From IMG/VR virus record IMGVR_UViG_3300025840_000011: a stretch of 64,000 nt of DNA; one strand, written 5' to 3'. The translations under genes were made by a program, and so were the position numbers. The notes beneath the pieces are model-generated. The model saw only the letters and a program-made list of their open reading frames with translations, had not been told where the DNA came from and made no database searches. Source of the stretch: a virus. Shown piece by piece: positions 45,596-64,000 of this stretch (its first letter is position 1; every line of letters starts with the position of its first letter).

Positions 45596-46171
45596 ATGCG
45601 CTTAGTAATTAGCAGCGTGGTGTTACTTACATCATTAATTTTTGGAGTCGCAGTCAATGCACAGGACGCTGACGAAACTCCGACTCAAACAGTTGAACCT
45701 ATCATAACTGAGAGTACCGTTACTACCAACGGTAAAACGACTACTATTCTCAGATCACCCCCTGCCTCTGCGATCACCCCGACAATCAACACGTCGAACT
45801 CAGACTTGTGTACCTTTGGAGTTGCGGGTGCAATTCAAACTCAGATTCTTGGTGTCTCTACAGGTACTCAGGTAACGGATGAAAATTGTGAGAGGTTAAA
45901 GAATGCAAAGACGCTCTATGATATGGGAATGAAAGTGGCCGCCGTGTCGGTTATGTGCCAAGACGAAAGAGTCTTTGATGCAATGATGCACGCCGGAACA
46001 CCGTGTCCATATGATGGTCTAATAGGTCCAGCGGCAAAGGCGGCGTGGGAAATCAACGAAGAGGAACAACCCAATGCAGAAGACTACGACAAAGGGTTTA
46101 CAAATGACAAGAAAACCTTACTGGGCGCTGGTGGTGTCCTTAGTATTCTTCTCATGCTTCTGGTCATCTAA
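45596..46171 (+). CDS. Cassette 1 gene A: exported Cys-containing protein with C-terminal hydrophobic anchor
   Basis: Signal peptide ending AVNA; PPASAI.P...DLC...NCERLK...MCQD...GTPCP; ends GAGGVLSILLMLLVI. Confidence 0.8.
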   Translation: MRLVISSVVLLTSLIFGVAVNAQDADETPTQTVEPIITESTVTTNGKTTTILRSPPASAITPTINTSNSDLCTFGVAGAIQTQILGVSTGTQVTDENCERLKNAKTLYDMGMKVAAVSVMCQDERVFDAMMHAGTPCPYDGLIGPAAKAAWEINEEEQPNAEDYDKGFTNDKKTLLGAGGVLSILLMLLVI

Positions 46172-47000
46172 CGTACATGCACAAACCGTTTTCGGGACAA
46201 CCGGAAATGCGGCGCAAGATGGTCTTACATGGGTAATGACCAACGTCCTGCCTCAACAGACAGGACTTACAGTTAATGGTGTTGTGTACAGATACACAAC
46301 CATAAAGAACCCCGAAGACGATATGATCGTCTACGTGCAGAACGAGGATGCGGAGAACGAAGGTCAATACATTTTTCGATCCGCAGACGATTGGTCTGGA
46401 TTGCCAGGCAGTTCGATAAGGAGATTGGTTCCTGTCTCTAACATACCTCGAAGTAGGTGGGGAGACGGATCTATTGTTGTGGAAGGTGAAGGTAAAGTAA
46501 CGGATCCTACTGTCCTCTACAACTATCAGTACGATCCTTGTTTTGGTGTAACTGATAGACCGGAGTGCCCGAATTATATTCCGTCCACTCCAACCGTACC
46601 GGAAATTGTAGCGTATGATCCAATGGACGATCAGTTCGTACAAGAAGAACTGGAAAAAGAAACTGAAACTAAAGATGAGGAGGAAGAAGAGAGAGATAGA
46701 GAACAGATTGAGGAGGGTGGTGAATCAAAACCAAACCTGAGAAGGAAATCCCTCGAAGAGATGTTAGGTATTGTTGAGAGGTCACTTATCGCGTCCGCTG
46801 ACCAACAGATACACAACCAACTACTCTTACTAAACTTCGTACCAACTTTTTATTATGATACACTCCCCGACACTAAATACGAGGAGACCATAACTCTACA
46901 GGATGCGAATTTACCTGACAATACTAACGGGTATCGTGTAAACTTTGCCCAAGACCAACTACATCAAGAGATGGTCAATCTACAGTATGAACAACCATAA
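46104..47000 (+). CDS. Cassette 1 gene B: exported protein (beta-rich N-domain, acidic linker)
   Basis: Signal ending VHA; Y.YD.C....P.CP; paralogue at 60230. Confidence 0.8.
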   Translation: MTRKPYWALVVSLVFFSCFWSSNVHAQTVFGTTGNAAQDGLTWVMTNVLPQQTGLTVNGVVYRYTTIKNPEDDMIVYVQNEDAENEGQYIFRSADDWSGLPGSSIRRLVPVSNIPRSRWGDGSIVVEGEGKVTDPTVLYNYQYDPCFGVTDRPECPNYIPSTPTVPEIVAYDPMDDQFVQEELEKETETKDEEEEERDREQIEEGGESKPNLRRKSLEEMLGIVERSLIASADQQIHNQLLLLNFVPTFYYDTLPDTKYEETITLQDANLPDNTNGYRVNFAQDQLHQEMVNLQYEQP

Positions 47001-47013
47001 AAAGGAACATTAA

Positions 47014-47517
47014 ATGTTAAAGAAAGTACTACCATTAACGGCGTTGTCTCTTGTTCTCGCAACAAGTGCGAATGCAACTAATGTCGATATCACGGGTACT
47101 GTAGATTCTAAGTGTGTGGTGACAACAGACACTCTAGGTGTCTTTGGAAACCCGACACCAAGTACACTCAGTACTGACGCAGTTGACGGGGGTGTTGAAC
47201 CCATCGTTCGCTACGATGTTATTCAGGCTGATTATTACAAGGCGACAATAACAACTCCAGACCAATTCGTTGAGAGTCCTGCTTTGGACGATGTTGTGAC
47301 TTGGAGTGGAACAGTTTCGGTCAGTGAAGTTTCGGATCCCGCGATGGCGGCATACGACACTGAGAAGAGACTCTACAACAACGTAACAGAAATCGATCTA
47401 ACGGTTGCAGGAAGTACTTGGTTCAAAGTATCTTCAGAAGCCGACTATGGATTTGACAAGGCATTACCCGCTGGTATCTATCGTGCGACAGTACAGGCGG
47501 AGTGTATCGCAATCTAA
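47014..47517 (+). CDS. Cassette 1 gene C: pilin/fimbrial-subunit-like exported protein
   Basis: Signal ending ANA; I.G.V.SKC N-terminal strand; C-terminal P.G.Y.A.V.A.C strand; about 145-aa mature beta protein. Confidence 0.6.
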   Translation: MLKKVLPLTALSLVLATSANATNVDITGTVDSKCVVTTDTLGVFGNPTPSTLSTDAVDGGVEPIVRYDVIQADYYKATITTPDQFVESPALDDVVTWSGTVSVSEVSDPAMAAYDTEKRLYNNVTEIDLTVAGSTWFKVSSEADYGFDKALPAGIYRATVQAECIAI

Positions 47518-47895
47518 ATGATACGTTTTATTATGTTATTGACAGGATTGTTCTTGAGTGGGTCAGCGATGGCCCACTCTTGGACACCAACATATCCAAA
47601 ACTCGAAAGAAGTTTTGTTGAGAATGTGATGCAGACTGAGATGTTACTGATCAATCGAAGAAGTGATGTTGAGTTCTTCGAGATTAGTGTTTACGACTCT
47701 GAGTGGAACCCCGTGAAATTCGCCACGAGCGAAAAGATAATTAGGGTTCCTTACTTAGAGAGAAGAGAAGTAATGGTGTATATCCGACAACAAGATGTTG
47801 GTATTGCAGATTACATATGTACAAAAACTAAAATTGTCAGACAAAGGACTACCGGAACGTCCGTGTCTTCTAGGATATGTTCGAGATTGAAATGA
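47518..47895 (+). CDS. Cassette 1 gene D: periplasmic chaperone-like (single PapD-N-like Ig domain)
   Basis: Signal ending AMA; H.WTPTYPK, L.N.R.DV.FFEI.VYD, ICT/ICS Cys pair. Confidence 0.55.
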   Translation: MIRFIMLLTGLFLSGSAMAHSWTPTYPKLERSFVENVMQTEMLLINRRSDVEFFEISVYDSEWNPVKFATSEKIIRVPYLERREVMVYIRQQDVGIADYICTKTKIVRQRTTGTSVSSRICSRLK

Positions 47896-48389
47896 AAAAA
47901 TTACTCGTTATTGTAGCGTTATTGTTTTCTGCTGAGACCGCAGCGCAGGATTCTATACCCGCAACAACCACTACAACAATAATTGAGAGAGCGCCCACTA
48001 GTAACAGCGCGAGTTCTCTCAATCTTAATATGCCCAACTCTCCCCAAAGTTTTCAACAGGACCGTGTACGTGCAGGAGACTTCGAGTGTTCTGCCGCGAT
48101 TGGTTCTGCAACAAATCTAGAGTTTGGTGTGGTGGGTATCCTCAATCAGGATGACCCTTACTACGGAACTTACTATGGTACGGACATAGGTCCACCCACG
48201 AGATTTGGAAATCAAGCGTTCACACGAGACGTGGGTGTTTACGCACGGATCAATATTCCTATCGGTGCACCAAAAGAGAGACCCAACTGTAACTTGTTAT
48301 ACAAACTAGAGTTGGAGAAGAAACGACTAGAGGTCTTAAGACTACAACAGGAACTACAAAACTTACGCAACTTGCAATTCGAAGAATAA
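47892..48389 (+). CDS. Cassette 1 gene E: exported protein with amphipathic beta-hairpin and C-terminal coiled coil
   Basis: ECSAAIGS..N.EFGVVGI...D.GVY.RI.IPIG...NC..LY.LELEKKRLE. Confidence 0.75.
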   Translation: MKKLLVIVALLFSAETAAQDSIPATTTTTIIERAPTSNSASSLNLNMPNSPQSFQQDRVRAGDFECSAAIGSATNLEFGVVGILNQDDPYYGTYYGTDIGPPTRFGNQAFTRDVGVYARINIPIGAPKERPNCNLLYKLELEKKRLEVLRLQQELQNLRNLQFEE

Positions 48390-48429
48390 TAAATACAGTT
48401 AAACTAACTACCAAAAAGAGAATAATAAT

Positions 48430-48897
48430 ATGGTAGAACTAGCTGTCGCGGTGCAAGTCGCTGGTGCCGCATATAATGCAATTAAGGGAGCAGTGGAAAA
48501 GGGTAGGGAAGCCCAAGATATGATTGGCGCGTTCGGAAAGTTTTTCGATTCTATGGACGCAGTGAGTGAAGCAAACATCAAGAACCAATCTACCGCAGGA
48601 GTTCAGAAACTTTTTAGTGGTAACAGTGTAGAGGCGCAGGCGTTGGAGATCACCGCCGCGAAACACAAGATTGCATGGATGGAAAAAGAACTCAGAGAGT
48701 ACCTGATCTATTCCGGACAAGGCGCCTTCTACGAAGACATGATGGAAGAACGCAAAAGGATACGAAGGTATCGTCAGAACGAAATGCGTAGGAAGGCGCA
48801 GGCCAAGGCGTTCTGGATTGATGTTGCGGCGCTTGTTTTTGGTATAGGAATAAGTATATTTGTGATCACAGGACTCATCACAGTAATCGTAAGTTAA
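48430..48897 (+). CDS. Cassette 1 gene F: helical protein with C-terminal TM segment
   Basis: SVEAQAL, E.EL.EYL.Y.GQ..FY.DM..ER; paralogue at 62470. Confidence 0.8.
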   Translation: MVELAVAVQVAGAAYNAIKGAVEKGREAQDMIGAFGKFFDSMDAVSEANIKNQSTAGVQKLFSGNSVEAQALEITAAKHKIAWMEKELREYLIYSGQGAFYEDMMEERKRIRRYRQNEMRRKAQAKAFWIDVAALVFGIGISIFVITGLITVIVS

Positions 48898-48906
48898 GGA
48901 TAACAG

Positions 48907-49386
48907 ATGGCAGAATTTGAATTCGCGGGAATGACCTTCAGAGGTGGTAGGATAATGGTTATCCTCACCGCCCTGTCAACCTTGGGTGGTGCATCTTGGG
49001 GTGCATTTGAGTTCTATAAAGACTACATGGATATGAAAGAGATCATTGCGAACATCGATACCACAGAGATTGAGAACCGCAATAGACTAATCGAGCAGAA
49101 GTTAGACGATGCGTTGATTCAAGTTGACGCCGCAGTAGACTATTCCAGAACTATCAAGAACGACTTACGAGACGATTTCAATCGCATGGAACGCAACGTT
49201 GACCGTGTGGAGGATCAAGGGAGAACTCTAGAAACCGTAGTTGAAGATATGATAGATAGGGCTGACGAACGATTTGATACCAAACGAGATGCACTCGTTG
49301 TGGATACTGATCGTAAACTTCAACAGGTAGAGGAAAGACTCGACGCAAAAATACAGGCGTTTTTAGATAATCCTTTATCAAATTAG
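48907..49386 (+). CDS. Cassette 1 gene G: N-terminal TM plus coiled-coil protein
   Basis: MAEFEFAGMTFRGG..LSTLGG..WGAFEFY...LDNPL; paralogue at 63224. Confidence 0.8.
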   Translation: MAEFEFAGMTFRGGRIMVILTALSTLGGASWGAFEFYKDYMDMKEIIANIDTTEIENRNRLIEQKLDDALIQVDAAVDYSRTIKNDLRDDFNRMERNVDRVEDQGRTLETVVEDMIDRADERFDTKRDALVVDTDRKLQQVEERLDAKIQAFLDNPLSN

Positions 49387-53477: not shown

Positions 53478-53483
53478 GAAAAA

Positions 53484-53756
53484 ATGGTAATGAATGTTGA
53501 ACTGAACGTTGAAGTGACACCTTGGTTTGATGAAAAGGGTGTTCTTACTAGTCTCTATATTGGAGACGCATGTGAACCTGCCTATGAGGGACACACTCCA
53601 TACAAAGATCTTGTCAAACAGAATCTATTCTGTTATACTGTGTTAGGAAAGATTCCCCCTGAACATTTTGATGAGGTCGAAGAGTTCGTGCGGGAACTGG
53701 AGAAGGCGGCCAAGTACGCACGTAAACAAATGGAAAAGATGAAAGAAGATGTTTGA
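53484..53756 (+). CDS. Hypothetical protein
   Basis: 90-aa ORF, SD agga. Confidence 0.6.
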   Translation: MVMNVELNVEVTPWFDEKGVLTSLYIGDACEPAYEGHTPYKDLVKQNLFCYTVLGKIPPEHFDEVEEFVRELEKAAKYARKQMEKMKEDV

Positions 53757-54423
53757 ACACGTATCAGTTGAATTGAAAGAGATGGAAGCGGTCACTACCG
53801 AAGAGGGTCGTAAGTATCAGACTCCCGAAGGTATTAACCTCCCATCCATTACTACCGTCCTGAGTATTCTCTCACGGGACGGTATTGCCGCATGGCGTAA
53901 ACGTGTAGGTGAGGAAGAGGCTAATCGAATCTCTCGTGTTGCTTCTACTCGTGGTACTAAGGTACACGAAATCATAGAGAAGTACATTAACAACGAGGAG
54001 GATTTTAAAGATGGATACACACCAGATATTATTTCCAGTTTTCTTGACCTTAAGTCCATTCTTGATGATCGTATTGGCAGAGTATTTGCACAGGAAGCAC
54101 CTCTTTACTCCAATCATCTTGGCGTTGCTGGTAGGGTTGACTGTGTGGCTGAGTTTGACGGTACAATTTCTATTATAGACTTCAAGACTTCTCGTAAGAA
54201 GAAGTTCCCGTCCATGATCAAGAACTACTTCATGCAAGAATCTGCCTACGCAATCATGTGGGAAGAACGTACTGGTCAACCCATCACTCAGTTGGTCACC
54301 ATTATTGCAGTAGATGATAATCCGCCTCAGGTGTTTATCGAACACCGTGACAACTGGGTACGCCCTCTCAAAGAAACCATTGAACAGTGGAACGAGGAAA
54401 ATTCGACTTTACAATTCTTATAA
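53749..54423 (+). CDS. PD-(D/E)xK exonuclease
   Basis: PSITTVL, RGT..H, AGRVD, IIDFKTS, Q..AY. Confidence 0.88.
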   Translation: MFEHVSVELKEMEAVTTEEGRKYQTPEGINLPSITTVLSILSRDGIAAWRKRVGEEEANRISRVASTRGTKVHEIIEKYINNEEDFKDGYTPDIISSFLDLKSILDDRIGRVFAQEAPLYSNHLGVAGRVDCVAEFDGTISIIDFKTSRKKKFPSMIKNYFMQESAYAIMWEERTGQPITQLVTIIAVDDNPPQVFIEHRDNWVRPLKETIEQWNEENSTLQFL

Positions 54424-54436
54424 ATAGTGTTATAGT
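54408..54436 (+). promoter_or_regulatory. Nested promoters: TTTACA-17-TATAGT with late TATAAATA (54419-54426) in the spacer
   Basis: Both elements are visible in the sequence. Confidence 0.65.
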
Positions 54437-54465
54437 TTTTGTTAAACACTAACGGAATAAGTCGT

Positions 54466-55779
54466 ATGTTAAGATTTTCTAGTTTCGAAGAACTCTCAGA
54501 GTCGAAGTTGACCTTCGGCGAAATCGTGCGGGACGATAGGGCGTTTCGTCTAGAATTGTTTTTGCGTAAGTACAAAGGTAACGAACCTTTCGAACTGACC
54601 GATGGTAGTCAAGTCACTCTCCAGTATGATGCCGCAATTGAAAAGGCGTTGAGGGCGGGAGACGCAAAGACAGGTAACAAGATTGGTCTCATGACCAACA
54701 CCGGACAGAAGATTGCGTTCGGTAGTCTCGCAAAGACTCAGGAGTTTGGTGGTGGTCGTGGTTCCGGCGGTGGATCAGACAATACCCGTGCAACCGAATC
54801 CGCACAGTGCGTTTACCTTCAGGCCATCTGGGATGATCCCTCAACCAAATTCTCTCCGGACGATATCCGCAACGCATACAAGAAAACTTTCACAGACGCT
54901 ACCTTGGAAGATGTTTTGTTGGGTGACAATAATTGGATTGGTTCATCGATTGAGATTGCGAGGATCCTCTACAGGGTTTTGAAGAGACAAGGAACCTACA
55001 GTTTTCACCGTGGGTCCGACTGGGTTGATTCCCTTGAGAACAAGTTCAAGGCGTTGAACCGTCAAGAGAAATTATTTCAGAACGTCAATAAGTGGACTCC
55101 CGCCGACATCTGGTTGGTAAAAAAAGGTAAAGAAGGTGCGTATGACATAGACGGTTGTGATTCTATCAACGCACTCAACCAAGTACTTCTACAGGCGTTC
55201 AAAGAACGTGACATTATTGGGGTGTCACTCAAAACCACCGCTGGTGGTAAACCTAGACTTGCACAAGTCAACTACAAGAAACCATTCAAACCACCCGTCT
55301 TCCAGTCTGTCTCTTATAACAAGCGCGGAGACTTCTTCAAGTCAAAGGACGGATATCTGTTCGGACAGGGTGGTGTTGAGATTCAGTTCCGCACCTTCCC
55401 CACGTTCCAGTGTGAGGTCATCGGTAAGAAAGCAAAACACGGTAAGGTATCCCACGGTGGGATTGACTCCGCACTCTATGCAACTACACGTAATAAGACT
55501 GAGGCTCGAAAGACTCTAGAGGCAGAGATTAAGAAAGACCGTGAGGGGTTCTTGGATAAGTTCTACGGATTCTATTCCGGTGAGGTAACCAACCCCGTTG
55601 ACCGACAGGAGTTCTCGAAGAAACTGGCCAGTAAGAATGTCGAATGGTTGGTTTCTAAATATTACGTAACAACGATTTTTACCATGATCAAAGGACGTGA
55701 ACAAGACTTTATGTCGAGTCTATATCGTGTTGCCAAATCAGAATCAGCAGATTCTGCCGTCCACTTAAAGGTAATGTAA
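54466..55779 (+). CDS. Restriction-endonuclease-fold (PD-(D/E)xK-like) protein
   Basis: T...ES.QC, KWTPADIW, IIGVSLK; N-terminal MLRFSSFEELSE leader. Confidence 0.55.
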   Translation: MLRFSSFEELSESKLTFGEIVRDDRAFRLELFLRKYKGNEPFELTDGSQVTLQYDAAIEKALRAGDAKTGNKIGLMTNTGQKIAFGSLAKTQEFGGGRGSGGGSDNTRATESAQCVYLQAIWDDPSTKFSPDDIRNAYKKTFTDATLEDVLLGDNNWIGSSIEIARILYRVLKRQGTYSFHRGSDWVDSLENKFKALNRQEKLFQNVNKWTPADIWLVKKGKEGAYDIDGCDSINALNQVLLQAFKERDIIGVSLKTTAGGKPRLAQVNYKKPFKPPVFQSVSYNKRGDFFKSKDGYLFGQGGVEIQFRTFPTFQCEVIGKKAKHGKVSHGGIDSALYATTRNKTEARKTLEAEIKKDREGFLDKFYGFYSGEVTNPVDRQEFSKKLASKNVEWLVSKYYVTTIFTMIKGREQDFMSSLYRVAKSESADSAVHLKVM

Positions 55780-55780
55780 C

Positions 55781-56629
55781 ATGGCACAATACTCAGTAAA
55801 CAGAAACACACATCACAACACATCAAACAGTGACTTACATGAAATCATGTTGTTGGCTGATCAGGACGGCAACATTATCAATACGTTTGGTGTTGCATCG
55901 AATATTCCTATTGCAGGTGGACTCGTTGATGGGTATAGTGCAATACATAAGTTTGGTAGAAATCCAAATGTAGGAAACATACCAGAAACTATTTGGATGC
56001 ACGGAGGACTTTATAGTTATCTTGATGTTGGTTCTGATAGTACAATTTATGCATATAGCGCAAGCTCTGACGATGGTCCTGGCAATCCTGGTGCTCACAC
56101 GATTACTGTTCAAGGTTTAGATAATGATTTCAATCTAATTGAAGAAACGATTACTGTAAATGGTGCAGCTTCTACTGCTTCATTCCTAAGAGTTTATAGA
56201 GCATTTGTTGCGACTGCTGGGGCGTTAAGGGCAAATGATGGTAATGTTCTTATATCCACCGCCGCGGCTGGAGGTGGTACAGTTCTTGCTGATATTGGCG
56301 TTATTGGTACAGGAACAACTACTGGTTTGGGTCAAACTCAACTTGCACTTTATACAATACCAGCTGGAAAAACTGGTTATCTCACTACTTGGAACATCGG
56401 TGTAGCACCAATGAATAATGCTGTCACAGTGACTTTAAAAGCAAGAGAACTAGATGGTGATGCACCATTTAGATCAAAGGATATTGTTGATATCGTAGGT
56501 GGATATACTACTCAGAATTATTCAATTCCCTTGCGTTTTCCAGAAAAAACTGATATTGAAGTGAGAGGAACTGGTGACACTGGTTCAGTTATTTCATCTT
56601 CTTTTGATGTTATACTAGTAGATAACTAA
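55781..56629 (+). CDS. Putative virion structural protein (beta-rich, Gly/Thr/Ala-rich)
   Basis: HKFG.N, GA.TITVQGLD, F.RV.RA.V, YT.PAGKT.Y, EKTDIEVR. Confidence 0.6.
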   Translation: MAQYSVNRNTHHNTSNSDLHEIMLLADQDGNIINTFGVASNIPIAGGLVDGYSAIHKFGRNPNVGNIPETIWMHGGLYSYLDVGSDSTIYAYSASSDDGPGNPGAHTITVQGLDNDFNLIEETITVNGAASTASFLRVYRAFVATAGALRANDGNVLISTAAAGGGTVLADIGVIGTGTTTGLGQTQLALYTIPAGKTGYLTTWNIGVAPMNNAVTVTLKARELDGDAPFRSKDIVDIVGGYTTQNYSIPLRFPEKTDIEVRGTGDTGSVISSSFDVILVDN

Positions 56630-56657
56630 ATGTTATATGCATATAGCCAAACAATCC

Positions 56658-56686
56658 TTTACTTTTGTGTTCAGATATAGTACAAT
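56658..56686 (+). promoter_or_regulatory. Sigma70 promoter TTTACT-17-TACAAT (leaderless geometry)
   Basis: -10 ends 7 nt before ATG 56693. Confidence 0.55.
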
Positions 56687-56692
56687 GCGCGT

Positions 56693-57928
56693 ATGAAATC
56701 GTTTATGACACATCAAATGCTCTCTGAGGCGAAGAACACTCACATGACTCACATCGAGGATAAAGTCCTCTATGGGGGAGTTGAGGGAACTCGTCAGGCG
56801 ATCAACGCACTTCGTTCCCTGCGCGATATGCTTGCTGGCAAACATAAGGGCGATATCTCCGTCAAGTGGGACGGTGCTCCTGCTATCTTCGCAGGCATTG
56901 ATCCTCGGGACGGTAAGTTCTTCGTGGCGAAGAAGGGTATCTTCAACAAAAACCCCAAAGTATACAAGACGAAAGCAGATGTAGACGCTGACACTTCCGG
57001 TGACTTGAATGTAAAACTCAACGCTGCACTTGAGGAACTCCCTGCTCTTGGCATCAAGGGTGTCATACAGGGCGACTTCTTGTTTGGTCCTGGAGATGTA
57101 GCGACCAAGAATATTGGTGGCGATGCTTATGTTACGTTCCACCCCAACACGATCGTGTATGCCTTGCCTACTGGTAGTGCTGCGGCGAAAGAAGTGAAGA
57201 CTGCTCGTATCGGTATTGTATGGCATACAACATACACTGGTGATACGTTTGAAAGTATGCGAGCATCATTCGGCGTCAACGTTGGTGCTCTGAAGAACAG
57301 TCGTAAGGTTTGGAGTCAAGATGCTATGCTTCGTGACGTGACGACTGCTACTTTGACTGCTGCCAAAACTAAAGAAGTGACCGAATACCTTTCAACTGCT
57401 GGTAAAATATTCCAGAAGATTGCTGGCAGCACCCTTCGGCAACTTGAGGCGAACCAAGAACTCGCTCAGTTGATTGAACAGTTTAACAACACGTTCGTCC
57501 GTAAGGGTATGGTGATACAAGACTCGCGGCGACACGTGATTGCACTACAACGTTGGTTGCGCACGAAGTACAAAGCAGAGATGGATAAGCGATCCACGGA
57601 GCGTGGTAAGAAGGCACAAAAAGAAAAACTCAACAAAATTATGGCGTTCTTCTCGAAGCAAAACACCGCATCATTAATCGCTATGTTCGAATTGCAAAAG
57701 AATATTGTATTGGCGAAACTGATCCTTATAAATAAACTCAATGCCCTTGCGAATATAAGCACTTTTGTTAAAACGCGGAAGGGTTACAAGGTAACAGGTC
57801 AAGAAGGATTTGTTGCTATCGACAAACTTGGTGGTGATGCGGTGAAGTTAGTTGATCGTATGGAATTTTCATATAACAACTTTTCACCAGATATATTAAA
57901 AGGATGGGATAAACCTAGTAGGAATTAA
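56693..57928 (+). CDS. Conserved T4-like protein (DUF6267-like) with ligase-type nucleotidyltransferase motifs
   Basis: KNTHMTHIED, VKWDGAPA (KxDG), QGD, EGFV, VKLVDR. Confidence 0.65.
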   Translation: MKSFMTHQMLSEAKNTHMTHIEDKVLYGGVEGTRQAINALRSLRDMLAGKHKGDISVKWDGAPAIFAGIDPRDGKFFVAKKGIFNKNPKVYKTKADVDADTSGDLNVKLNAALEELPALGIKGVIQGDFLFGPGDVATKNIGGDAYVTFHPNTIVYALPTGSAAAKEVKTARIGIVWHTTYTGDTFESMRASFGVNVGALKNSRKVWSQDAMLRDVTTATLTAAKTKEVTEYLSTAGKIFQKIAGSTLRQLEANQELAQLIEQFNNTFVRKGMVIQDSRRHVIALQRWLRTKYKAEMDKRSTERGKKAQKEKLNKIMAFFSKQNTASLIAMFELQKNIVLAKLILINKLNALANISTFVKTRKGYKVTGQEGFVAIDKLGGDAVKLVDRMEFSYNNFSPDILKGWDKPSRN

Positions 57929-57930
57929 AC

Positions 57931-58425
57931 GTGCCTAAACCACTTTCATTTAAAGATTTTCTCGTGGTCGACTATGCTCCAGGAATGGGTGAGTATATCA
58001 ACTATCAAGCGGCCAAACGCAAAAAGCAGCAAGGTGCTGGCAGCAATGCCGAGTATGCTTCTTACCAACCTGAAGGTGAGAAGATAGAAGAAGCACTGAC
58101 TCATGCTCAGCGTATTAAGAAACGTCAGATGATGAAGAAGATGAAGGGACGTATTAAAATTGGAAGACTTCGTGCACTAAAAAGAACTCCAACAATGGAC
58201 GTTATCAAGAGACGTGCAAAGAAGAAAGCGAGATTGCTCATGCTCAAGAAATTGACTAGGGGCAAGTCGAAGCAAGATATGAGTTTCGCTATGCGCCAGT
58301 CATACGAAAAGAAACTTGACAAGATGAAACCTCGCTTAGATCGTATTGCCAGAAGGTTAATCCCCGACGTTAGAAAAGCAGATCGTGAGAGAAAGAAGGC
58401 AGCATCTGCTGCTAAAAATAAATAA
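57931..58425 (+). CDS. Highly basic hypothetical protein
   Basis: K/R-rich after IEEAL; probably nucleic-acid binding. Confidence 0.7.
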   Translation: MPKPLSFKDFLVVDYAPGMGEYINYQAAKRKKQQGAGSNAEYASYQPEGEKIEEALTHAQRIKKRQMMKKMKGRIKIGRLRALKRTPTMDVIKRRAKKKARLLMLKKLTRGKSKQDMSFAMRQSYEKKLDKMKPRLDRIARRLIPDVRKADRERKKAASAAKNK

Positions 58426-58445
58426 TGTAGTCGTAGGGAGACGAC

Positions 58446-59573
58446 ATGATTAAGTCGTTTAATGACTATCTGGTAGAAGAAGCAAAGGTCGCTTATTTTA
58501 CCTTCGGTCGTATGAATCCTCCAACCTCTGGTCATCAGAAGTTGTTAGACATGCTCGCAAAAAATGCGGGCAAAAATCCTTATTTCGTTTTCCTATCTCA
58601 GTCACAAGACGCCAAGAAAAATCCACTCGACTACAGCGCGAAGGTAAAGCATGTTCGTAAGATGTTTCCTCGTCACGCTCGTCGAGTTTTGATCAACAAG
58701 AAAGTCCGCACTGCCTTTGATGCAGCATCATACCTGTATGAGCAAGGTTTTAAAAACTTGGTCATGGTTGTTGGTTCTGACCGTGTTCGAGAGTTTACGA
58801 CATTGCTAGAAAAGTATAATGGTGTGAAGGGTAAGCATGGATTTTACAACTTCAAAAACATCCAAGTAGTTTCTGCTGGAGCACGCGATCCTGACGCCGA
58901 AGGTGTAGAGGGTATGTCTGCTTCTAAACTCCGTGCGTTCGCAGCGGATAATGACTTCGCAGGTTTCTCTCAGGGTCTAGGATCTATGAGTAACAAAGAC
59001 GCGAAGAAGTTGTTTGTTGATGTACGCAACGGTATGGGCATCAAAGAAGAAACTGTGTTCAAACGCCACGTAGAACTTGACCCTGTGTCGGAGACTCGTG
59101 AGAAGTTTGTAAAGGGTGAGTTGTTTGAAGTTGGTGATCAGGTTGTAGTAAAAGAATCTGAAGAAGTTGGCACCATCACTCATCTAGGCAGCAACTATGT
59201 TATCGTCCAACTGGGCGAGGATAAAGTTGTGCGCAAATGGTTAGACGCCATTGAAAAGTTAGATGAATATGTGTCCAGCGCAGAGTTTGTTCCGTCACCC
59301 ACTGGTGGCAAGAAATATGCGACACTCAACATGCGCGAAGAACCTAAAACTCCTCAAGACCCTGACATTAAAGATCGCAAGGGTTCCCAACCAAAAGCAT
59401 ACCATAAAGGTTTAAGCAAGTCGATGAAACGTCGTCGTGATGCTCAATTTAAGAAGCAGACTAAAATGTCAGACTCAGATCCAAAGGCATACAAACCTGC
59501 TCCTGGCGACAAAACAACTAAAACTAAACCGTCAAAATACACGAAAGCGTTTTCTAAGATGTACGGCGACTAA
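58446..59573 (+). CDS. Cytidylyltransferase/NMNAT-PPAT-like nucleotidyltransferase
   Basis: FGRMNPPTSGH, VGSDR, SAG.RDPD...GMSAS. Confidence 0.85.
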   Translation: MIKSFNDYLVEEAKVAYFTFGRMNPPTSGHQKLLDMLAKNAGKNPYFVFLSQSQDAKKNPLDYSAKVKHVRKMFPRHARRVLINKKVRTAFDAASYLYEQGFKNLVMVVGSDRVREFTTLLEKYNGVKGKHGFYNFKNIQVVSAGARDPDAEGVEGMSASKLRAFAADNDFAGFSQGLGSMSNKDAKKLFVDVRNGMGIKEETVFKRHVELDPVSETREKFVKGELFEVGDQVVVKESEEVGTITHLGSNYVIVQLGEDKVVRKWLDAIEKLDEYVSSAEFVPSPTGGKKYATLNMREEPKTPQDPDIKDRKGSQPKAYHKGLSKSMKRRRDAQFKKQTKMSDSDPKAYKPAPGDKTTKTKPSKYTKAFSKMYGD

Positions 59574-59576
59574 ATA
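59569..59576 (+). promoter_or_regulatory. Late-like promoter ACTAAATA upstream of cassette copy 2
   Basis: Same octamer as upstream of copy 1. Confidence 0.45.
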
Positions 59577-59697
59577 TTCGTGGTCTCCGTTATGTGCTTG
59601 ACCTGACGTTCCTGTTTTATTTCCTTTTGTAATTACGAATAATACTATGCAAATCTGATTTGATTTGTTGGACAAAACTACATTAGGAAATGGTAAA

Positions 59698-60303
59698 ATG
59701 GATAAACTGGACGCAAGTCTATGGCGCATTATCTGTGCCGCCATATTAGTAGTAACATTAGCAGTTGTTGCATCAGAGGCGATATCGCAAGATGAAAACC
59801 AACCGCTTGATGATGTTATTAGAACCGAGTCGGTCACTAACAGTACAGTGACTACGAACGGCAACACAACCACAACACTGAAGTCTCCACCTGCTTCAGC
59901 AATCACTCCTACTATAAACACTTCCAACTCCGACCTCTGTACGTTCGGAGTTGCTGGTGCAGTACAAACGCAGATTCTTGGTATCTCTACTGGTACACAG
60001 TTTACTGATGAAAACTGTGAACGTCTCAAGAACGCAAAGACCTTGTACGATATGGGTATGAAAGTTGCAGCAGTATCAATGATGTGTCAGGATGAAAGAG
60101 TGTTTAAGGCAATGATGAATGCTGGAACACCTTGTCCTTATGACGGACTTATTGGTGATCAGGCAAGAGCAGCGTGGTTAGCAGAAGGTAACACAGTAGA
60201 AGAAAACGTAAAACCAGAGGAAGGATTGGATGAAACGGATAAGACTGTCGCAGCTGCTAGTGGCGGCATTGCTAGTTTGCTTGCCCTCTTACTCTTACTC
60301 TGA
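59698..60303 (+). CDS. Cassette 2 gene A (paralogue of 45596)
   Basis: Near-identical core SPPASAITPTINTSNSDLC...GTPCPYDGLIG; ends SGGIASLLALLLLL. Confidence 0.85.
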   Translation: MDKLDASLWRIICAAILVVTLAVVASEAISQDENQPLDDVIRTESVTNSTVTTNGNTTTTLKSPPASAITPTINTSNSDLCTFGVAGAVQTQILGISTGTQFTDENCERLKNAKTLYDMGMKVAAVSMMCQDERVFKAMMNAGTPCPYDGLIGDQARAAWLAEGNTVEENVKPEEGLDETDKTVAAASGGIASLLALLLLL

Positions 60304-61114
60304 GCAAGTATTCGGCACCACAACCAATGCGGCGAGTTCTGGATATAACTGGGTTATGTCCAATGTCTTGCCTCAGGCGACAGGGTTGACTGTCAGTAAT
60401 GTGATATACAGATACACTACAGTGAAAGATCCTGATGATCCTATGTTGGTGCACGTTTCTAACGAAAATCCTATAGACGGTGGATATACATTTAGAAGTA
60501 CTGATGACTGGACTGGAATACCAGGAAATACAATAAACAGAGTTATACCGATATCGCAAATACCTATCGAGTATTGGGGGGATGGAAGTATTGAGTGGGA
60601 AGGCAAAGGGAGAGTTGATGACCCTTTTGTGGTATACACTTATCAATATGACACCTGCTATGATCCACAAGCAGATCCGGATTGCCCAGGATACAAACCC
60701 GAGATACCTGATATACCACCCGTCCCAGATGTTGCTGATCCTCTTAATGACCAGTTTGTACAAGATGAGTTAGATCGCGAAATGATGCTTCGCGATGAAG
60801 ACGAAGAAGAAAAACAAAGAGCAAAACTTGCAGATGCTGAAGAGGAAGAAGAAGACGTAGACCTAGAAACTGTGCTGGGTATAGTTGGGCGTTCGCTACA
60901 AGGCGCAGAGGATACTGCTAAGCACAATCAGGTCATGGCGTTAAGTCAGTTTTCTCAACAATATTTCCAACAGTTGCCTGATGGTGTTATAGAGGACACT
61001 GTTGTGTTAAAAGATTCTAGACTCCCGAGGAATAATCGGGGTCGTAGACTACAGTTTGCGCAAGACTTACTTCATGATAAATTAGTAAAATCTCAATATA
61101 GAGGAGAACAGTAA
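60230..61114 (+). CDS. Cassette 2 gene B (paralogue of 46104)
   Basis: VFGTT.NAA, WVM.NVLPQ.TGLTV, FRS.DDW.G.PG, FAQD.LH. Confidence 0.85.
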   Translation: MKRIRLSQLLVAALLVCLPSYSYSEQVFGTTTNAASSGYNWVMSNVLPQATGLTVSNVIYRYTTVKDPDDPMLVHVSNENPIDGGYTFRSTDDWTGIPGNTINRVIPISQIPIEYWGDGSIEWEGKGRVDDPFVVYTYQYDTCYDPQADPDCPGYKPEIPDIPPVPDVADPLNDQFVQDELDREMMLRDEDEEEKQRAKLADAEEEEEDVDLETVLGIVGRSLQGAEDTAKHNQVMALSQFSQQYFQQLPDGVIEDTVVLKDSRLPRNNRGRRLQFAQDLLHDKLVKSQYRGEQ

Positions 61115-61611
61115 TGTTCAAAAAGACGTTGGCATTGTGTGTATCGCTCGCAGCGATGAATGCATATGCTGTAGACACACCGATCATTGGGCAGGTAGAG
61201 TCTAAGTGTGTGGTGACAACTGATAAGCAGGGTGTTTATGGAAACCCGAGTGCTAGCATTCTCAGTACTGATGCAGCAGACGGTGGAGTAGAACCTGTTG
61301 TGCGATTCGATGTTGTCCTCGCTGAAGCATACAAGGCAGTGATTGCTCATCCGATTTCATTCTCACAAAGTCCACAGTTGAACGACGTTGTCAACTGGAC
61401 TGGATCAACTTCTGTAGAAGCAGTCTCTGACGCTGGTATGTCAGCATACGACACTTCTAAAGTTGAATACGATAATGTGACAGAAGTCGATCTTGATATC
61501 GCTGGCAGCACTTGGTTCAAGGTAAGTTCTGAAGCAGATTACGGTTTTAATAAGGCACTCCCAGGAGGCACTTATACTGCAATCGTAGAAGCGAACTGCA
61601 TAGCACTATAA
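61114..61611 (+). CDS. Cassette 2 gene C, pilin-like (paralogue of 47014)
   Basis: SKCVVTTD..GV.GNP, GGVEP.VR.DV, AGSTWFKVSSEADYG..KALP.G.Y.A.V.A.CIA. Confidence 0.65.
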   Translation: MFKKTLALCVSLAAMNAYAVDTPIIGQVESKCVVTTDKQGVYGNPSASILSTDAADGGVEPVVRFDVVLAEAYKAVIAHPISFSQSPQLNDVVNWTGSTSVEAVSDAGMSAYDTSKVEYDNVTEVDLDIAGSTWFKVSSEADYGFNKALPGGTYTAIVEANCIAL

Positions 61612-61614
61612 ACT

Positions 61615-61989
61615 ATGCGCTTCGTTATGGCGGTAATCGGGTGTCTGCTGTGTGCGCAAGTTTATGCTCACCAGTGGACGCCCACATATCCCAAGGTAAC
61701 TGGTTCATTTGTTCCTGGGATCTATCAAGCAAAGATGTACTTGTGGAATAGTCGAAAGGATGTTTCATATTATACATTTGAAGTGTTTGATGAAGATTTT
61801 CTACCTGTACCATTCGCAACAGCAGATAGGACGGTACAGTTAGATTATTTGAAAAAGAAAGAAGTGGTAATTTATTTTAGAGAGGCAGACTACCTTCGTT
61901 CAGTTTATATTTGTAGTCGGTCTATGATTTTACAGGGGGACGTAAGTAGAACGGTTGTGTCCTCGAGGATATGTTCGAAAATACGATGA
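61615..61989 (+). CDS. Cassette 2 gene D, chaperone-like (paralogue of 47518)
   Basis: HQWTPTYPK, N.R.DV, FAT, VSSRICSK. Confidence 0.6.
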   Translation: MRFVMAVIGCLLCAQVYAHQWTPTYPKVTGSFVPGIYQAKMYLWNSRKDVSYYTFEVFDEDFLPVPFATADRTVQLDYLKKKEVVIYFREADYLRSVYICSRSMILQGDVSRTVVSSRICSKIR

Positions 61990-62468
61990 AAAGATTATTG
62001 TTGTTTTTATTTTTAGTTTCTGGTTCGGCATATGGACAGAGCAACGGGATAAACCTTGCGATACCGCAAAGTCCCCAGTCCTTCCAATCAGATAGAGTTA
62101 GAGCAGGTGACGTCGAATGCTCAGCGGCGATCGGGTCATCTACAAACGTAGAGTTTGGGGTTGTTGGTATATTAAACCAAGAAGATCCAATTTACAACCT
62201 TGCTTCGCAAGATCCATATATGATGAACCGATATAATACAGGTGAGTTCTTGCGAGACATTGGTGTGTATGGGAAGATTACTATCCCTATCGGCGCACCT
62301 AAGCAAAGGTTGAATTGTAATGCGTTATATCAGTTAGAGTTAGAAAAGAAGCGATTGGAAGTTATGAAACTACAGCAGGAAATAGTAAACCTGCGTCAGT
62401 TAAAGTTTGAAGGGTCTGGAATACCGACAGCACCGAACTTGATGGCAGGACCACCAAGAGAGGAATAA
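61986..62468 (+). CDS. Cassette 2 gene E (paralogue of 47892)
   Basis: SPQSFQ.DRVRAGD.ECSAAIGS, EFGVVGILNQ, IPIGAPK. Confidence 0.8.
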   Translation: MKRLLLFLFLVSGSAYGQSNGINLAIPQSPQSFQSDRVRAGDVECSAAIGSSTNVEFGVVGILNQEDPIYNLASQDPYMMNRYNTGEFLRDIGVYGKITIPIGAPKQRLNCNALYQLELEKKRLEVMKLQQEIVNLRQLKFEGSGIPTAPNLMAGPPREE

Positions 62469-62469
62469 A

Positions 62470-62931
62470 ATGATAGAAGTAGCAGCAGCGTTGTCAATGG
62501 CAGGCTCTGCTTTTAAAATGCTAAAAGGGGCAATTGAACAGGGACGTGAAGTACAAGATATGTACGCGCAGTTTGCTCAGTTTTTTGACGCGAAGGAATC
62601 GCTCGCAGAGGCAGATCAACATGCAAAGAATCCATCGATGGTGGGTTCACTTTTTGGTGGCAGCAGTGTTGAAGCGCAGGCACTACAGGTTACTGCTGCT
62701 CGTCATAAAATTAAACAACTAGAAAAAGAGTTGTACGAATATTTGTTGTACACTGGTCAACAACAATTCTACGATGATATGATGAAAGAAAGGCGAGTTA
62801 TTCGTCAGCGTAGAATAGAGGCAGCACAAGCAGCTGCTCGGAAAAAAGCAAACATAATAGACGGCATCGCAATAGTTTTGTTTTTATGTTTTTCTGGTGC
62901 TATGATTGCCGGATTCGTGAGTGTCTTATGA
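62470..62931 (+). CDS. Cassette 2 gene F (paralogue of 48430)
   Basis: SVEAQAL..TAA.HKI; C-terminal TM. Confidence 0.8.
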   Translation: MIEVAAALSMAGSAFKMLKGAIEQGREVQDMYAQFAQFFDAKESLAEADQHAKNPSMVGSLFGGSSVEAQALQVTAARHKIKQLEKELYEYLLYTGQQQFYDDMMKERRVIRQRRIEAAQAAARKKANIIDGIAIVLFLCFSGAMIAGFVSVL

Positions 62932-63062
62932 TAAAGACTGAGATCACACAGAATGGCATCAGATATATTGTATATGATAATAATGATCGTATCGTCGTTA
63001 TTACGTCTGATAGAAAACTCGCTCAAAAATTATGGGAGAAGAAAAGGGATGCGCAGAGGTAA
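62928..63062 (+). CDS. Small hypothetical protein (44 aa) inserted in copy 2
   Basis: ATGA overlap with gene F; YIVYD.N.RIV.IT. Confidence 0.5.
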   Translation: MIKTEITQNGIRYIVYDNNDRIVVITSDRKLAQKLWEKKRDAQR

Positions 63063-63237
63063 GAAAACTGATATAATTGATTATATCGACATTCGTATTT
63101 CACAACTCGCTTCTGATATGCACAAAGCGAAAGACGAATACGACAAGCAATGGTATAATCGTATCATTCAAGAACTCAGTTGGGCAAGGTCGCAAGATCA
63201 CAACTGTTACATGGGAGAAAACAATGGCGGAGTTTGA
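63049..63237 (+). CDS. Small hypothetical protein (62 aa) inserted in copy 2
   Basis: MRRGK...D..WYNRIIQEL.W. Confidence 0.55.
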   Translation: MRRGKKTDIIDYIDIRISQLASDMHKAKDEYDKQWYNRIIQELSWARSQDHNCYMGENNGGV

Positions 63238-63703
63238 ATTCGCTGGCATGACGTTCCGTGGTGGTAAGATAGTGGTGCTGATCACTGCTCTATCTACACT
63301 CGGCGGTGGCGCATGGGGTGCGTTTGAATTTTATAACGACTACCGTAACATGAAAGCACAGATAACAAGTTACGTTGCTCCTGATCTTTCTCATATTGAT
63401 CAAGAGTTGGCAGTACAGAAAGAAACTATGGCATCTGTAGAGGCGAGTTTATCTGCCCTCGCTCTAAAGATTGATGCCTTGAAATCAGATTTGAGTAATG
63501 ACATGGATAAGGTTGAAGCACTTGCTCGTCGCGTAGACGATTCAACTGCAACTACCCAACGCGAATTACGAGATGACGTTTATGAGATTGAGATTCGAGT
63601 AAACGAAAGGATGAGGACTTTGGATAAAGACCTGCGAGATGCGCGCAAAGATCTCGAAGAGAAGATTCAGATTATCCTCGACAATCCACTCAATAATCCG
63701 TAG
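63224..63703 (+). CDS. Cassette 2 gene G (paralogue of 48907)
   Basis: MAEFEFAGMTFRGG...LDNPL; SD ggag. Confidence 0.8.
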   Translation: MAEFEFAGMTFRGGKIVVLITALSTLGGGAWGAFEFYNDYRNMKAQITSYVAPDLSHIDQELAVQKETMASVEASLSALALKIDALKSDLSNDMDKVEALARRVDDSTATTQRELRDDVYEIEIRVNERMRTLDKDLRDARKDLEEKIQIILDNPLNNP

Positions 63704-63711
63704 GAGGGGGC

Positions 63712-64000
63712 ATGGAACCTGAAAAGAAAATAGTACAACTAGAACTTGAAGTTGATACTACCATGGTTGATAGTAGCAAGAATCCATATCAAAACTGGAT
63801 ACACTTGGCACGAGCAGTAGATTCATGGCGAATCTTTCCTCGTTTGTTTTTATCAGTATACATATTCCTACTGTATAAAACGGTGCTCTGGTATATGGAT
63901 CTAGCAGAACCAAGTATGGAGCAGTCTGGTTTAATATCAGTCATCGTAGGTGCAGGTGCAGCGTGGTTTGGTTTGTACGCTGGAACGCACAAAGAAAATA
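63712..64000 (+). CDS. Two-TM membrane protein, holin-like (3'-partial)
   Basis: SD ggagg; DSWRIFPRLF...W.M.L..P...QSGL.S..VGAGAAWFGLY. Confidence 0.6.
   Translation, partial: MEPEKKIVQLELEVDTTMVDSSKNPYQNWIHLARAVDSWRIFPRLFLSVYIFLLYKTVLWYMDLAEPSMEQSGLISVIVGAGAAWFGLYAGTHKEN

Follow-up and report, generated by a model that had tools for sequence, protein, structure and literature searches.

Two copies of a seven-gene cassette on one marine phage contig are probably united by an assembly cross-join within a shared mosaic gene

RESULTS AND DISCUSSION

The stretch of 64,000 nucleotides analyzed here (the window; IMG/VR record IMGVR_UViG_3300025840_000011) carries two intact copies of a seven-gene cassette (Table 1), and the presence of both copies on one contig is probably the result of a cross-join during assembly and not of a duplication within a genome. 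Copy 2 is proposed to represent the single orthologous cassette, at insertion site S2, of another marine T4-like phage, Y', present alongside X, and the contig would thus comprise a full 152,244-nt turn of phage X, bearing copy 1 only, followed by 16 kb of the Y' right arm. The assembler would have crossed from one genome to the other via an exact repeat of approximately 0.5 kb inside gene S (approximately positions 55865 to 56370), which is common to an X variant and Y'.

Table 1. Features of the window discussed in the text (secretion and membrane assignments are predictions)
Feature	Coordinates	Strand	Description
Copy 1 cassette (A to G)	45596..49386	+	Resident in phage X, site S1
Gene S	55781..56629	+	282 aa, phrog_8198; GCT/AGC-normal mosaic gene, common to otherwise dissimilar phages
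Right arm YR' of Y'	56630..64000	+	DUF6267 ligase-like gene, 164-aa gene, nucleotidyltransferase gene, copy 2, membrane gene
Copy 2 gene A	59698..60303	+	201 aa; signal peptide, Thr-rich linker, conserved 4-Cys core, C-terminal TM anchor
Copy 2 gene B	60230..61114	+	294 aa; secreted beta-rich domain, Pro-rich/acidic linker, C-terminal conserved QY motif
Copy 2 gene C	61114..61611	+	165 aa; secreted, pilin-like; Cys32 and Cys162 invariant
Copy 2 gene D	61615..61989	+	124 aa; small, secreted; predicted partner of C
Copy 2 gene E	61986..62468	+	160 aa; secreted; conserved Cys pair, C-terminal coiled coil
Copy 2 gene F	62470..62931	+	153 aa; helical; TM-like C-terminal segment 126-153
Two small ORFs, F-G spacer	62928-63062 (44 aa), 63049-63237 (62 aa)	+	Public gene calls in near-identical contigs
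Copy 2 gene G	63224..63703	+	159 aa; TM-like N-terminal segment 16-34, coiled coil, C-terminal DNPL motif
Two-TM membrane protein gene	63712..64000	+	97-100 aa in relatives; phrog_10198, E 1.5e-20

Comparison of the two cassette copies

An earlier note, made from the nucleotide sequence alone, had described seven genes in identical order in both copies, and homologous open reading frames (ORFs) were indeed recovered from both regions; a tblastn search of the window with the cassette proteins returned exactly two loci (E 1e-30 to 1e-80). Global alignment of the two copies gave amino acid identities of 62, 49, 62, and 60% for A, B, C, and E, respectively (for E, over aligned columns), and of 40, 46, and 38 to 41% for D, F, and G; across all comparisons made, identity spanned 38 to 65%. 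The gene A core, which the note had judged by eye to differ at about 10 of about 105 residues, differs at 12 of 111, and 54 of the 93 identical degenerate residues of this core are specified by a different codon, in agreement with the heavily changed synonymous sites that had been described. Between the copies pS is saturated (0.67 to 0.86), with pN at 0.25 to 0.44. The changes in signal peptides and linkers, the two extra small ORFs between copy 2 genes F and G, and the lipoprotein-type ORF (127 aa) following copy 1 are likewise evident from the sequence. The “holin-like” gene downstream of copy 2 does encode two hydrophobic segments, the term being applicable to its architecture only. The GCT contrast noted between the copies amounts to 8.4 (copy 1) versus 22.5 (copy 2) GCT+AGC per kb, and an abrupt compositional switch occurs at 55.75 kb, from 6.2 per kb in 9001 to 55752 to 22.8 per kb in 55753 to 64000.

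Phage X is a circle with a single cassette

Phage X, which harbors copy 1 as its single cassette, has been assembled independently several times as a circle of 152,244 nt. In ERZ27275059:k141_294139 (152,385 nt), the gene located at 16690 to 17292 of the window is found at record positions 715 to 1317, exactly as predicted for an end overlap of 141 nt, thus giving a genome of 152,244 nt; the same length is obtained by adding a gap of 4,267 nt to the 147,977 nt of ERZ27275070:k141_70077, while other X assemblies measure 152,385, 151,998, 151,699, and 151,606 nt. The X-specific right arm (XR) proceeds from S through a 213-aa gene, DUF6267 (407 aa), a 149-aa gene, a 496-aa nucleotidyltransferase gene, DUF5824, and a 549-aa gene and on to the ribonucleotide reductase (RNR) region. 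This arm contains no cassette and is GCT/AGC depleted (3 to 7 GCT+AGC per kb), and copy 2 is absent from the complete X circles. All but one of the long X contigs with an identifiable arm after S run into XR, the exception being L215 (161,440 nt, corresponding to the circle plus 393 plus 8,803 nt), which leaves S into a third arm.

The right arm carrying copy 2 probably belongs to phage Y'

YR' is 99.6 to 99.97% identical to four contigs (L210 to L213), all of which begin at 56320 to 56763, and 96.6% identical to the Y1 contigs, which bear a G011-type left flank contiguous with the right arm and carry the S2 cassette only. All 11 contigs encoding the exact 411-aa DUF6267 protein of this arm begin inside S, at 56311 to 56486, and no contig was found that joins a Y-type left flank through S to YR' at 99% identity or above. 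The composition of YR' (approximately 23 GCT+AGC per kb) displays no amelioration: it contains 171 GCT/AGC words versus 169 in the related contig L004, with seven lineage-specific losses and seven gains. A 31.6-kb Y' contig, which is GCT/AGC normal, extends beyond nrdB into Y-type genes, and its longest exact run in common with X is 14 nt. Contigs of X and Y' co-occur in samples 3300006810, ERZ27275008, and ERZ27275070.

Gene S as the probable junction

Gene S is most likely the point at which the assembly switches genomes. When compared with the X contig L214, the window displays 2 mismatches in 37014 to 55869 and 59 in 55870 to 56630, after which no similarity is apparent; from 55865 to 56065, the window matches at every position the Y'-type contig L250, in which a G011-like flank (92 to 100% amino acid identity) precedes the S allele. 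Several contigs are interrupted in or close to S: L216 ends at 55991 (55865 + 126), L230 starts at 55729 (55870 - 141), L217 ends at 55869, and the window's own contig starts at the window equivalent of 56244 (56371 - 127), with position 56371 being one at which the window differs from every other S allele covering it. As the distance separating these ends from polymorphic sites in S is k-1 or k bases, an exact repeat of approximately 0.5 kb common to X and Y' is indicated.

Gene S is also a naturally exchanged mosaic gene of dissimilar, co-occurring phages. It is found in different contexts in several phages, its alleles in X-type genomes are mosaic, and the forks at 55870 are preceded by an X-specific 141-mer upstream. 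The exact match between X and Y' at 55865 to 55869 is just 5 bases long, and L216, which derives from another sample, follows the window's path from X into S; natural recombination inside S therefore certainly occurs, and real molecules exist in which the X left arm runs into the initial portion of the S allele seen in the window.

An over-length contig holding both alternative arms

The contig from which the window derives is longer than the closed X genome and contains both alternative arms, XR and YR', at one locus: XR stands at its beginning, a complete circuit of X follows, and the sequence then passes into the Y' arm, which has normal GCT/AGC content and bears copy 2. All short words of two XR proteins, P0001 and P0002 (95/95 and 110/110), were matched within the window's own genome record, in stretches whose ends precede the window by 91,718 and 89,827 letters. 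The spacing between these stretches (1,891 nt) is the same as in L228, and the interval separating the XR stretch from the end of S measures 146,455 nt, with the circle length predicting 146,456 nt. Other contigs of a comparable cross-joined kind are L240, in which the reciprocal join is represented (a Y-type left flank followed by S and XR), L229, where a GCT/AGC-normal left flank is followed by the same two elements, and the over-length L215. The earlier note had named an origin of the two halves from different co-assembled genomes as the finding that would overturn its reading, and at the level of independent assemblies this is what was observed; for the source sample, the pairing of left flank and right arm across the repeat is something that we infer. 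It must be weighed against a cross-join that paired reads may have backed the join in an assembler of the metaSPAdes type and that a crossover in S running on into YR' is mechanistically possible. The total length and start position of the contig, moreover, depend in part on previously noted coordinates, with which two sequence look-ups agreed.

Such a crossover is at the center of the principal alternative, which we consider improbable, if worthy of attention, and by which the X left arm with copy 1 is naturally joined via S to the Y' right arm with copy 2. The recombinant would have arisen during coinfection, when homologous recombination took place within the S segment common to both phages, and would coexist with X, the contig representing both haplotype arms. 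The standing of S as a proven site of natural recombination, its varied contexts, and the paths of the window and L216 from the X left arm into a Y-like S segment are all consistent with this possibility, and GCT/AGC-normal islands within depleted DNA elsewhere in the window (6 to 9 kb and 51 to 52 kb) imply that imports into X do occur. However, the link between the X left arm and YR' is present in no contig but that of the window, the exact copy 1 and copy 2 C proteins being found in 82 and 97 blocks, respectively, of the public contig index, and the long X contigs with an identifiable arm after S, save for L215, continue to XR. Moreover, for at least 31 kb YR' does not return to sequence resembling X, and within this stretch no other exact X/Y' run exceeds 14 nt, and the second crossover required for a viable circular map has no visible substrate in that interval. 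That the contig exceeds one genome and holds XR too, and that the Y' arm has undergone no GCT/AGC loss, similarly argue against a natural recombinant.

Lineage, distribution, and selection

The cross-join reading is in accordance with the phylogeny of the cassette, for which the earlier note had suggested a comparison of sister copies versus separate clades. The gene C tree separates the two copies, with copy 1 grouping in the starred S1 clade (95) and copy 2 in a different starred clade, S2+S3 (99), and the union of copy 1 and copy 2 was rejected by the AU test (p = 2e-77). Copy 1 occupies the same site, S1, as in 21 related loci and displays no differences from the cassette of the independently assembled X circle L214, while the copy 2 cassette is 99.6 to 100% identical to those of Y' contigs. 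Duplication within a genome followed by divergence, with the paralogues retained for different specificities, would accommodate the identical gene order and intactness of the copies, yet it is contradicted by their placement, not as closest relatives, in different well-populated clades, by the near or complete identity of each copy to cassettes elsewhere (for copy 1, in X circles devoid of copy 2), and by the sharply unlike word usage of the two regions, and it can be regarded as having next to no likelihood.

In related marine T4-like phages, the seven-gene cassette is present at no fewer than four different sites, at one copy per genome, and each of the 15 long related contigs checked contains one cassette, one of these contigs being rated 100% complete. 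Relative to S1-type genomes, site S2 consists of the cassette and the two-TM gene inserted between the nucleotidyltransferase and DUF5824 genes. Copy 2 differs from the cassette of L004 by 83 synonymous and 18 nonsynonymous substitutions (dN/dS 0.06), with dN/dS values of 0.08 and 0.085 obtained against L003 and L005, respectively. The purifying selection that the earlier note had proposed for both copies holds in each lineage, but it does not extend to evidence that one genome holds both, as the signal derives from single-cassette phages and is therefore uninformative on co-residence. Similarly, the proposal that copy 2 came from a relative by recombination is upheld as regards its separate lineage, whereas the join itself is probably one of assembly. 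No evidence was found that one compact genome keeps two operons, and the suggestion of two specificities is consequently without footing.

Had a duplication been accepted, it would suggest that phages retain a pair of envelope system variants directed at different hosts or subunits; because the join is probably one of assembly, this contig does not warrant such a conclusion. The same caution applies to its other apparent duplicates, such as the two pairs of DUF6267 ligase-like and nucleotidyltransferase genes at the contig start and at 56.7 to 59.6 kb, and the GCT/AGC switch at 55.75 kb should not be taken as a recent import into a purged genome. If the natural recombinant were real, it would stand alone among the genomes checked in having two cassettes and would offer a natural test for distinct cassette specificities. 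The cassette as a single-copy module, S as a mosaic gene, and the true X genome as a 152,244-nt circle remain useful outcomes.

Predicted products and possible role of the cassette

The cassette proteins are predicted from their sequences to be Sec exported, with A, F, and G being membrane anchored and B, C, D, and E periplasmic. Copy 2 A matches phrog_20531 (E 1e-17) and belongs to a family of 1666 clusters at 50% identity; its core is modeled as a beta-hairpin and four helices (mean pLDDT 73), and a fold search with this model gave no match (top Z 2.9). Gene B, for which 20 columns are invariant in the family alignment (A2), has no sequence match in Pfam or PDB, while E (alignment A3, 38 sequences) has none in PDB. 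Gene F was found in only 22 of approximately 93 related loci, and family scans with G returned coiled-coil noise only. The F-G spacer of copy 2 is 295 nt long, as opposed to 43 to 114 nt in most relatives, and the small ORFs are absent from L006, L013, L015, L019, L024, L071, and L143, whose spacers fall within the latter range; conservation of the second small ORF is 100% in L005 and 79% in L009 and L010. The two-TM membrane gene accompanies the cassette at site S2.

Docking of copy 2 D with copy 2 C was predicted with an ipSAE of 0.79, the best of three controls scoring 0.00; of 80 solved complexes, 58 attained the mark applied, compared with 2 of 110 mismatched pairs. The predicted contacts involve D residues 107 to 122 and C residues 29 to 36 and 152 to 165, with at least 97% of contacts agreeing between runs and a partner pLDDT of at least 88, although part of the score may come from resemblance to solved chaperone-subunit complexes. 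By this model, D would hold the pilin-like C protein through insertion of its C-terminal strand between the first and last strands of C. The most likely role of the cassette, which we put forward with low confidence, is the formation of an envelope-located complex in the infected cell, serving, for example, in exclusion or envelope remodeling.

Comparison with known systems

The cassette resembles chaperone-usher pilus systems (FimC-FimA and Caf1M-Caf1) in that C is predicted to be secreted, is approximately 145 aa in length, and possesses N- and C-terminal cysteines, and in the modeled placement of a D strand between the first and last strands of C. It differs in that D is a single domain of approximately 105 aa when mature and not a two-domain PapD-like chaperone; D has no Pfam or NCBIfam match (PF00345 and PF02753 being the PapD-like families), C likewise attains no family in either database, its similarity to FimF (E 0.066) falling far short of the FimF cutoff, and no usher (PF00577) was detected in the cassette proteins and neighbors scanned (Pfam, NCBIfam, and PHROGs). 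A likeness to two-component spanins (lambda Rz/Rz1 and T4 PseT.3/PseT.2) is apparent in the i-spanin-like arrangement of G, with a predicted N-terminal TM segment and periplasmic coiled coil, and in the lipoprotein gene which follows copy 1. Y', however, has its own match to PF26831 (Phage_T4_Spanin) a few kilobases downstream, and G is therefore ruled out as the lysis spanin.

The location of the cassette at variable sites, with the genes flanking the insertion points conserved, is reminiscent of modular exchange in the hyperplastic regions of T4-like phages, although the cassette borders yielded no homing endonuclease, integrase, or repeat. Finally, the contig shares with repeat-induced chimeric contigs of short-read metagenome assemblies its excess length, its possession of both alternative arms, a switch within an exact repeat, contig ends at k-distances in many samples, and reciprocal joins in other assemblies. 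The repeat in this instance is not an insertion sequence (IS) element or rRNA gene but a naturally exchanged mosaic phage gene, which renders real recombinants at S plausible.

Two cassettes in two clades

The co-occurrence of two complete cassettes within a single contig is probably the result of an assembly cross-join, at gene S, of two marine T4-like phages: phage X, which carries copy 1, and phage Y', which carries copy 2. The window belongs to an uncultured marine T4-like myovirus and has genes for a tail sheath, portal, major head protein, family B DNA polymerase, gp46-like nuclease and DnaB-type helicase.

Features of the window, contexts of the cassette in related phages and gene order of the X arm
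Feature	Coordinates	Description
Copy 1	45596-49386	Cassette, genes A to G
Gene S	55781-56629	282 aa, phrog_8198
YR'	56630-64000	Right arm of Y' within the window
DUF6267 ligase-like and nucleotidyltransferase pair	56693-59573	YR' version
Copy 2	59698-63703	Cassette, genes A to G
GCT/AGC-normal islands	6001-9000; 51001-52000	16-21 words per kb
Site S1		3' of the homologue of 44733-45500; 5' of a lipoprotein gene and DUF932
Site S2		3' of the nucleotidyltransferase 58446-59573; followed by a small membrane gene
Other cassette sites		At least two further contexts
XR after S		213-aa gene, DUF6267 (407 aa), 149-aa gene, 496-aa nucleotidyltransferase, DUF5824, 549-aa gene, RNR

The earlier note had described, from the sequence alone, two cassettes of identical gene order which share a nearly unchanged gene A core but differ heavily at synonymous sites, in their GCT content and, in copy 2, by two extra small ORFs and a downstream membrane gene, a description which is upheld throughout. 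Seven homologous ORFs (A to G) are present at both locations, and their products share 38-65% amino acid identity, varying with gene and method. Synonymous differences are saturated (pS, 0.67-0.86; pN, 0.25-0.44), and the gene A core differs at 12 of 111 residues, with a different codon at 54 of its 93 identical degenerate positions. The two additional ORFs of copy 2, absent in most relatives, lie inside a 295-nt F-G spacer, the membrane gene 3' of this copy specifies a small protein with two transmembrane segments and no known function assigned, and GCT plus AGC words number 8.4 per kb in copy 1 versus 22.5 per kb in copy 2.

IMG/VR searches that used the two gene C sequences as queries retrieved 93 loci, in which the cassette occupies several sites, differing among phages. 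Copy 1 groups with S1 loci in a starred clade of the gene C tree, while copy 2 groups with S2 and S3 loci in a second, separate starred clade; a topology joining the two copies was rejected by the AU test (P = 2e-77, computed without three rows identical to copy 2). Gene C occurred exactly once in each of 15 long relatives examined. Cassette composition is itself variable: gene F was identified at just 22 of about 93 loci (L001 to L093), gene G directly follows gene E in locus L077, and the small-ORF insert between F and G is restricted to some members of the S2 and S3 clade.

The further claim that both copies are under purifying selection holds for the copy 2 lineage, for which dN/dS against close relatives is 0.06-0.14, a signal that comes from single-cassette phages. 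It does not extend to co-residence of the two copies, copy 1 being identical to the cassette of the X circles.

Phage X, phage Y' and their arms

The frequency of GCT and AGC words changes at 55.75 kb, from 6.2 per kb over positions 9001 to 55752 to 22.8 per kb over positions 55753 to 64000. Starting at position 56615, the window shares 93-97% identity with three IMG/VR contigs (L001, L003 and L004), whose upstream genes retain synteny with the window at just 35-45% protein identity. L143, to which the left part is most closely related, has a cassette at S1 and lacks one 3' of its nucleotidyltransferase. The right part contains 171 GCT/AGC words versus 169 in L004, and amelioration of the Y' arm was rejected, as its seven lineage-specific losses are balanced by seven gains; judged by word content, the right part bears no sign of past residence in a purged genome. 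Two GCT/AGC-normal islands, one in the head-gene region and the other within the depleted 9- to 55-kb background, may represent other recently exchanged segments.

The exact copy 1 C protein was found in 82 index blocks, contigs of 50-200 kb being present in 20 of these, and X contigs are 99.7-99.99% identical to the window from position 37014 on. Contig L214 differs from the window by 2 mismatches up to position 55869 and by 59 over positions 55870 to 56630, beyond which similarity ceases; after S, phage X proceeds into its own arm, XR, from which the cassette is absent and in which GCT plus AGC words number 3-7 per kb. In a contig of 152,385 nt, the window gene at 16690-17292 was located at positions 715 to 1317, as predicted for a 141-nt end overlap, and the X genome is, therefore, a circle of 152,244 nt. 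A second X contig yields the same length (147,977 nt plus a 4,267-nt gap), and four further X assemblies measure 151.6-152.4 kb. Near-identical assemblies of phage X, to which window positions 1 to 56629 and XR (L228 and L240) belong, were obtained from at least five ENA and JGI samples, which indicates an abundant and nearly clonal population.

The contig containing the window also holds XR. All short words of the XR proteins P0001 and P0002 (95/95 and 110/110, respectively) were matched in stretches of the window's own genome, ending 91,718 and 89,827 letters upstream of the window; their spacing of 1,891 nt is that observed in X contig L228, and the distance from the XR stretch to the end of S is 146,455 nt, versus 146,456 nt predicted by the circle. 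These look-ups, together with the distance match, place XR first, followed by the whole X circle, the X left arm, S and YR' with copy 2. Because both arms are thus present, each YR' gene with an XR homologue appears "duplicated," and the cassette is not the only such case. The DUF6267 ligase-like and nucleotidyltransferase pair likewise occurs twice, its XR version in the first 4.3 kb of the contig; this repeat has the same cause as that of the cassette and is not a duplication.

Contigs sharing 99.6-99.97% identity with the right part of the window all start within or just past S (positions 56320 to 56763), and the 11 contigs encoding the exact DUF6267-411 protein all start at positions 56311 to 56486. 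The longest of these (31.6 kb) is GCT/AGC normal from end to end and passes nrdB into genes absent from X, including those for a lysozyme and a carbamoyltransferase. A second crossover at nrdB, by which the Y' arm would rejoin X, was rejected, the longest exact run shared by X and Y' in this contig being no more than 14 nt. Contig L250, which was identified with a 40-mer of the window's S allele and shares its sample of origin with the 31.6-kb contig, possesses a left flank with 92-100% protein identity to the Y-type flank of contig G011, and this flank leads into an S allele identical to that of the window over positions 55865 to 56065. In the related Y1 contigs (L204 to L209 and G011), a Y-type left flank and right arm are contiguous, and the cassette is present at S2 only.

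Gene S as the point of joining

Gene S has no Pfam match and forms a GCT/AGC-normal island within the purged genome of X; it is a hub of natural recombination, and assemblies repeatedly break there. It has many mosaic alleles, which share 92-98% identity and exact stretches as long as 200 nt, and it occurs in differing contexts in dissimilar phages (L214, L215, L229, L230, L231, L240 and L250), following a DUF6267 gene in L229. No record of the window's exact S protein exists in the contig index, and a 40-mer from its mid-part (positions 56210 to 56249) had no exact match among viral contigs.

Contig L216 ends at 55991 (55865 + 126) and L217 at 55869, and the MEGAHIT contig from which L230 derives has its start at 55729 (55870 - 141). 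The start of the window's contig was placed at 56244 (56371 - 127), a lead consistent with the look-ups, and at position 56371 the window differs from all other S alleles covering this site. Such k-mer-spaced contig ends delimit an exact repeat, at approximately 55865 to 56370, common to an X variant and Y'. This repeat possesses two entries (the X or Y left flank) and two exits (XR or YR'), and of its two possible traversals the window represents one.

Three further contigs switch exactly at S, between GCT/AGC-normal and depleted phage DNA or into a third arm, and are probably cross-joined assemblies as well. L240 (JGI 3300025610 Ga0208149_1000057) consists of a Y left flank, S and XR, the reciprocal join; L229 (ERZ27275074:k141_236907) combines a GCT/AGC-normal left flank with S and XR; and L215 (ERZ27275019:k141_461919), of 161,440 nt, comprises the X circle plus 393 nt and 8,803 nt of another arm.

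It is unlikely that the contig represents a natural recombinant, in which a crossover in S runs on into YR' to produce a true two-cassette phage. While natural recombination inside S is real, and X-specific sequence joined to a Y-like S segment recurs in another sample (L216), the X-to-YR' join was present in no other contig, complete X circles continue into XR, comparison of 31.6 kb of the Y' arm with X revealed no substrate for a second crossover, and the contig is itself over-length. Only five bases (55865-69) match exactly between X and Y', and a join of X to a Y-like S must, therefore, exist in reads. A literature search on chimeric phage contigs returned nothing specific to this case. 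In-genome duplication is scarcely credible as the source of copies which, on their gene C sequences, are not sisters.

Cassette proteins and comparison with known systems

Searches of Pfam, NCBIfam and PADLOC with the nine ORFs of copy 2, the adjacent membrane gene, S and the lipoprotein downstream of copy 1 returned only sub-threshold or coiled-coil noise, and PHROGs scans assigned families of unknown function only. Neither cassette was matched by megablast against 50,697 phage records, while tblastn of A detected the A core only, in pelagiphages, roseophages and Ralstonia phage RSP15. The family to which A belongs is very large and unannotated (>8000 word-index matches; 1666 clusters at 50% identity in a full scan). 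The full-length AlphaFold model of A is poor (pLDDT, 61), and the core, modeled from a deeper alignment (pLDDT, 73), is predicted to form a beta-hairpin and four helices, for which Foldseek gave no match at E <= 0.001 and VIA-align gave Z <= 2.9. PDB profile searches with A, B and E produced nothing meaningful, and kinship between A and E was rejected, their hhalign likeness being limited to signal peptides. No TATAAATA late-promoter motif is located directly 5' of either cassette, and nothing of note emerged from the scans for sigma-70 promoters and terminators.

The C and D proteins of copy 2 form a predicted complex (score, 0.79; best of three controls, 0.00), with contact agreement between runs of at least 97% and partner pLDDT of at least 88; the docking mark is one which 58 of 80 solved complexes attained, as did 2 of 110 mismatched pairs. 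G is not the lysis spanin, because Y' harbors a separate T4-type spanin gene. As a tentative working guess, the cassette might specify an envelope complex in the infected cell.

The cassette differs from chaperone-usher systems in having neither an usher nor a PapD-like chaperone. In the predicted C-D model, the C-terminal strand of D contacts the first and last strands of C, a placement which resembles donor-strand complementation, although the docking pass may partly reflect likeness to solved complexes. Pelagiphages carry an A-B-G(-F)-like set. In the cultured Pelagibacter phage Mosig (L202) and HTVC115P (L203), which are myo- and podoviruses, this set is reduced, C, D and E being absent, and comprises an A-like four-cysteine protein, a large secreted B-like protein bearing an acidic linker (in HTVC115P with a C-terminal QY motif) and a G-like transmembrane/coiled-coil protein, which in Mosig ends in NPL and is accompanied by an F-like gene. 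Mosig and HTVC115P could serve as experimental models.
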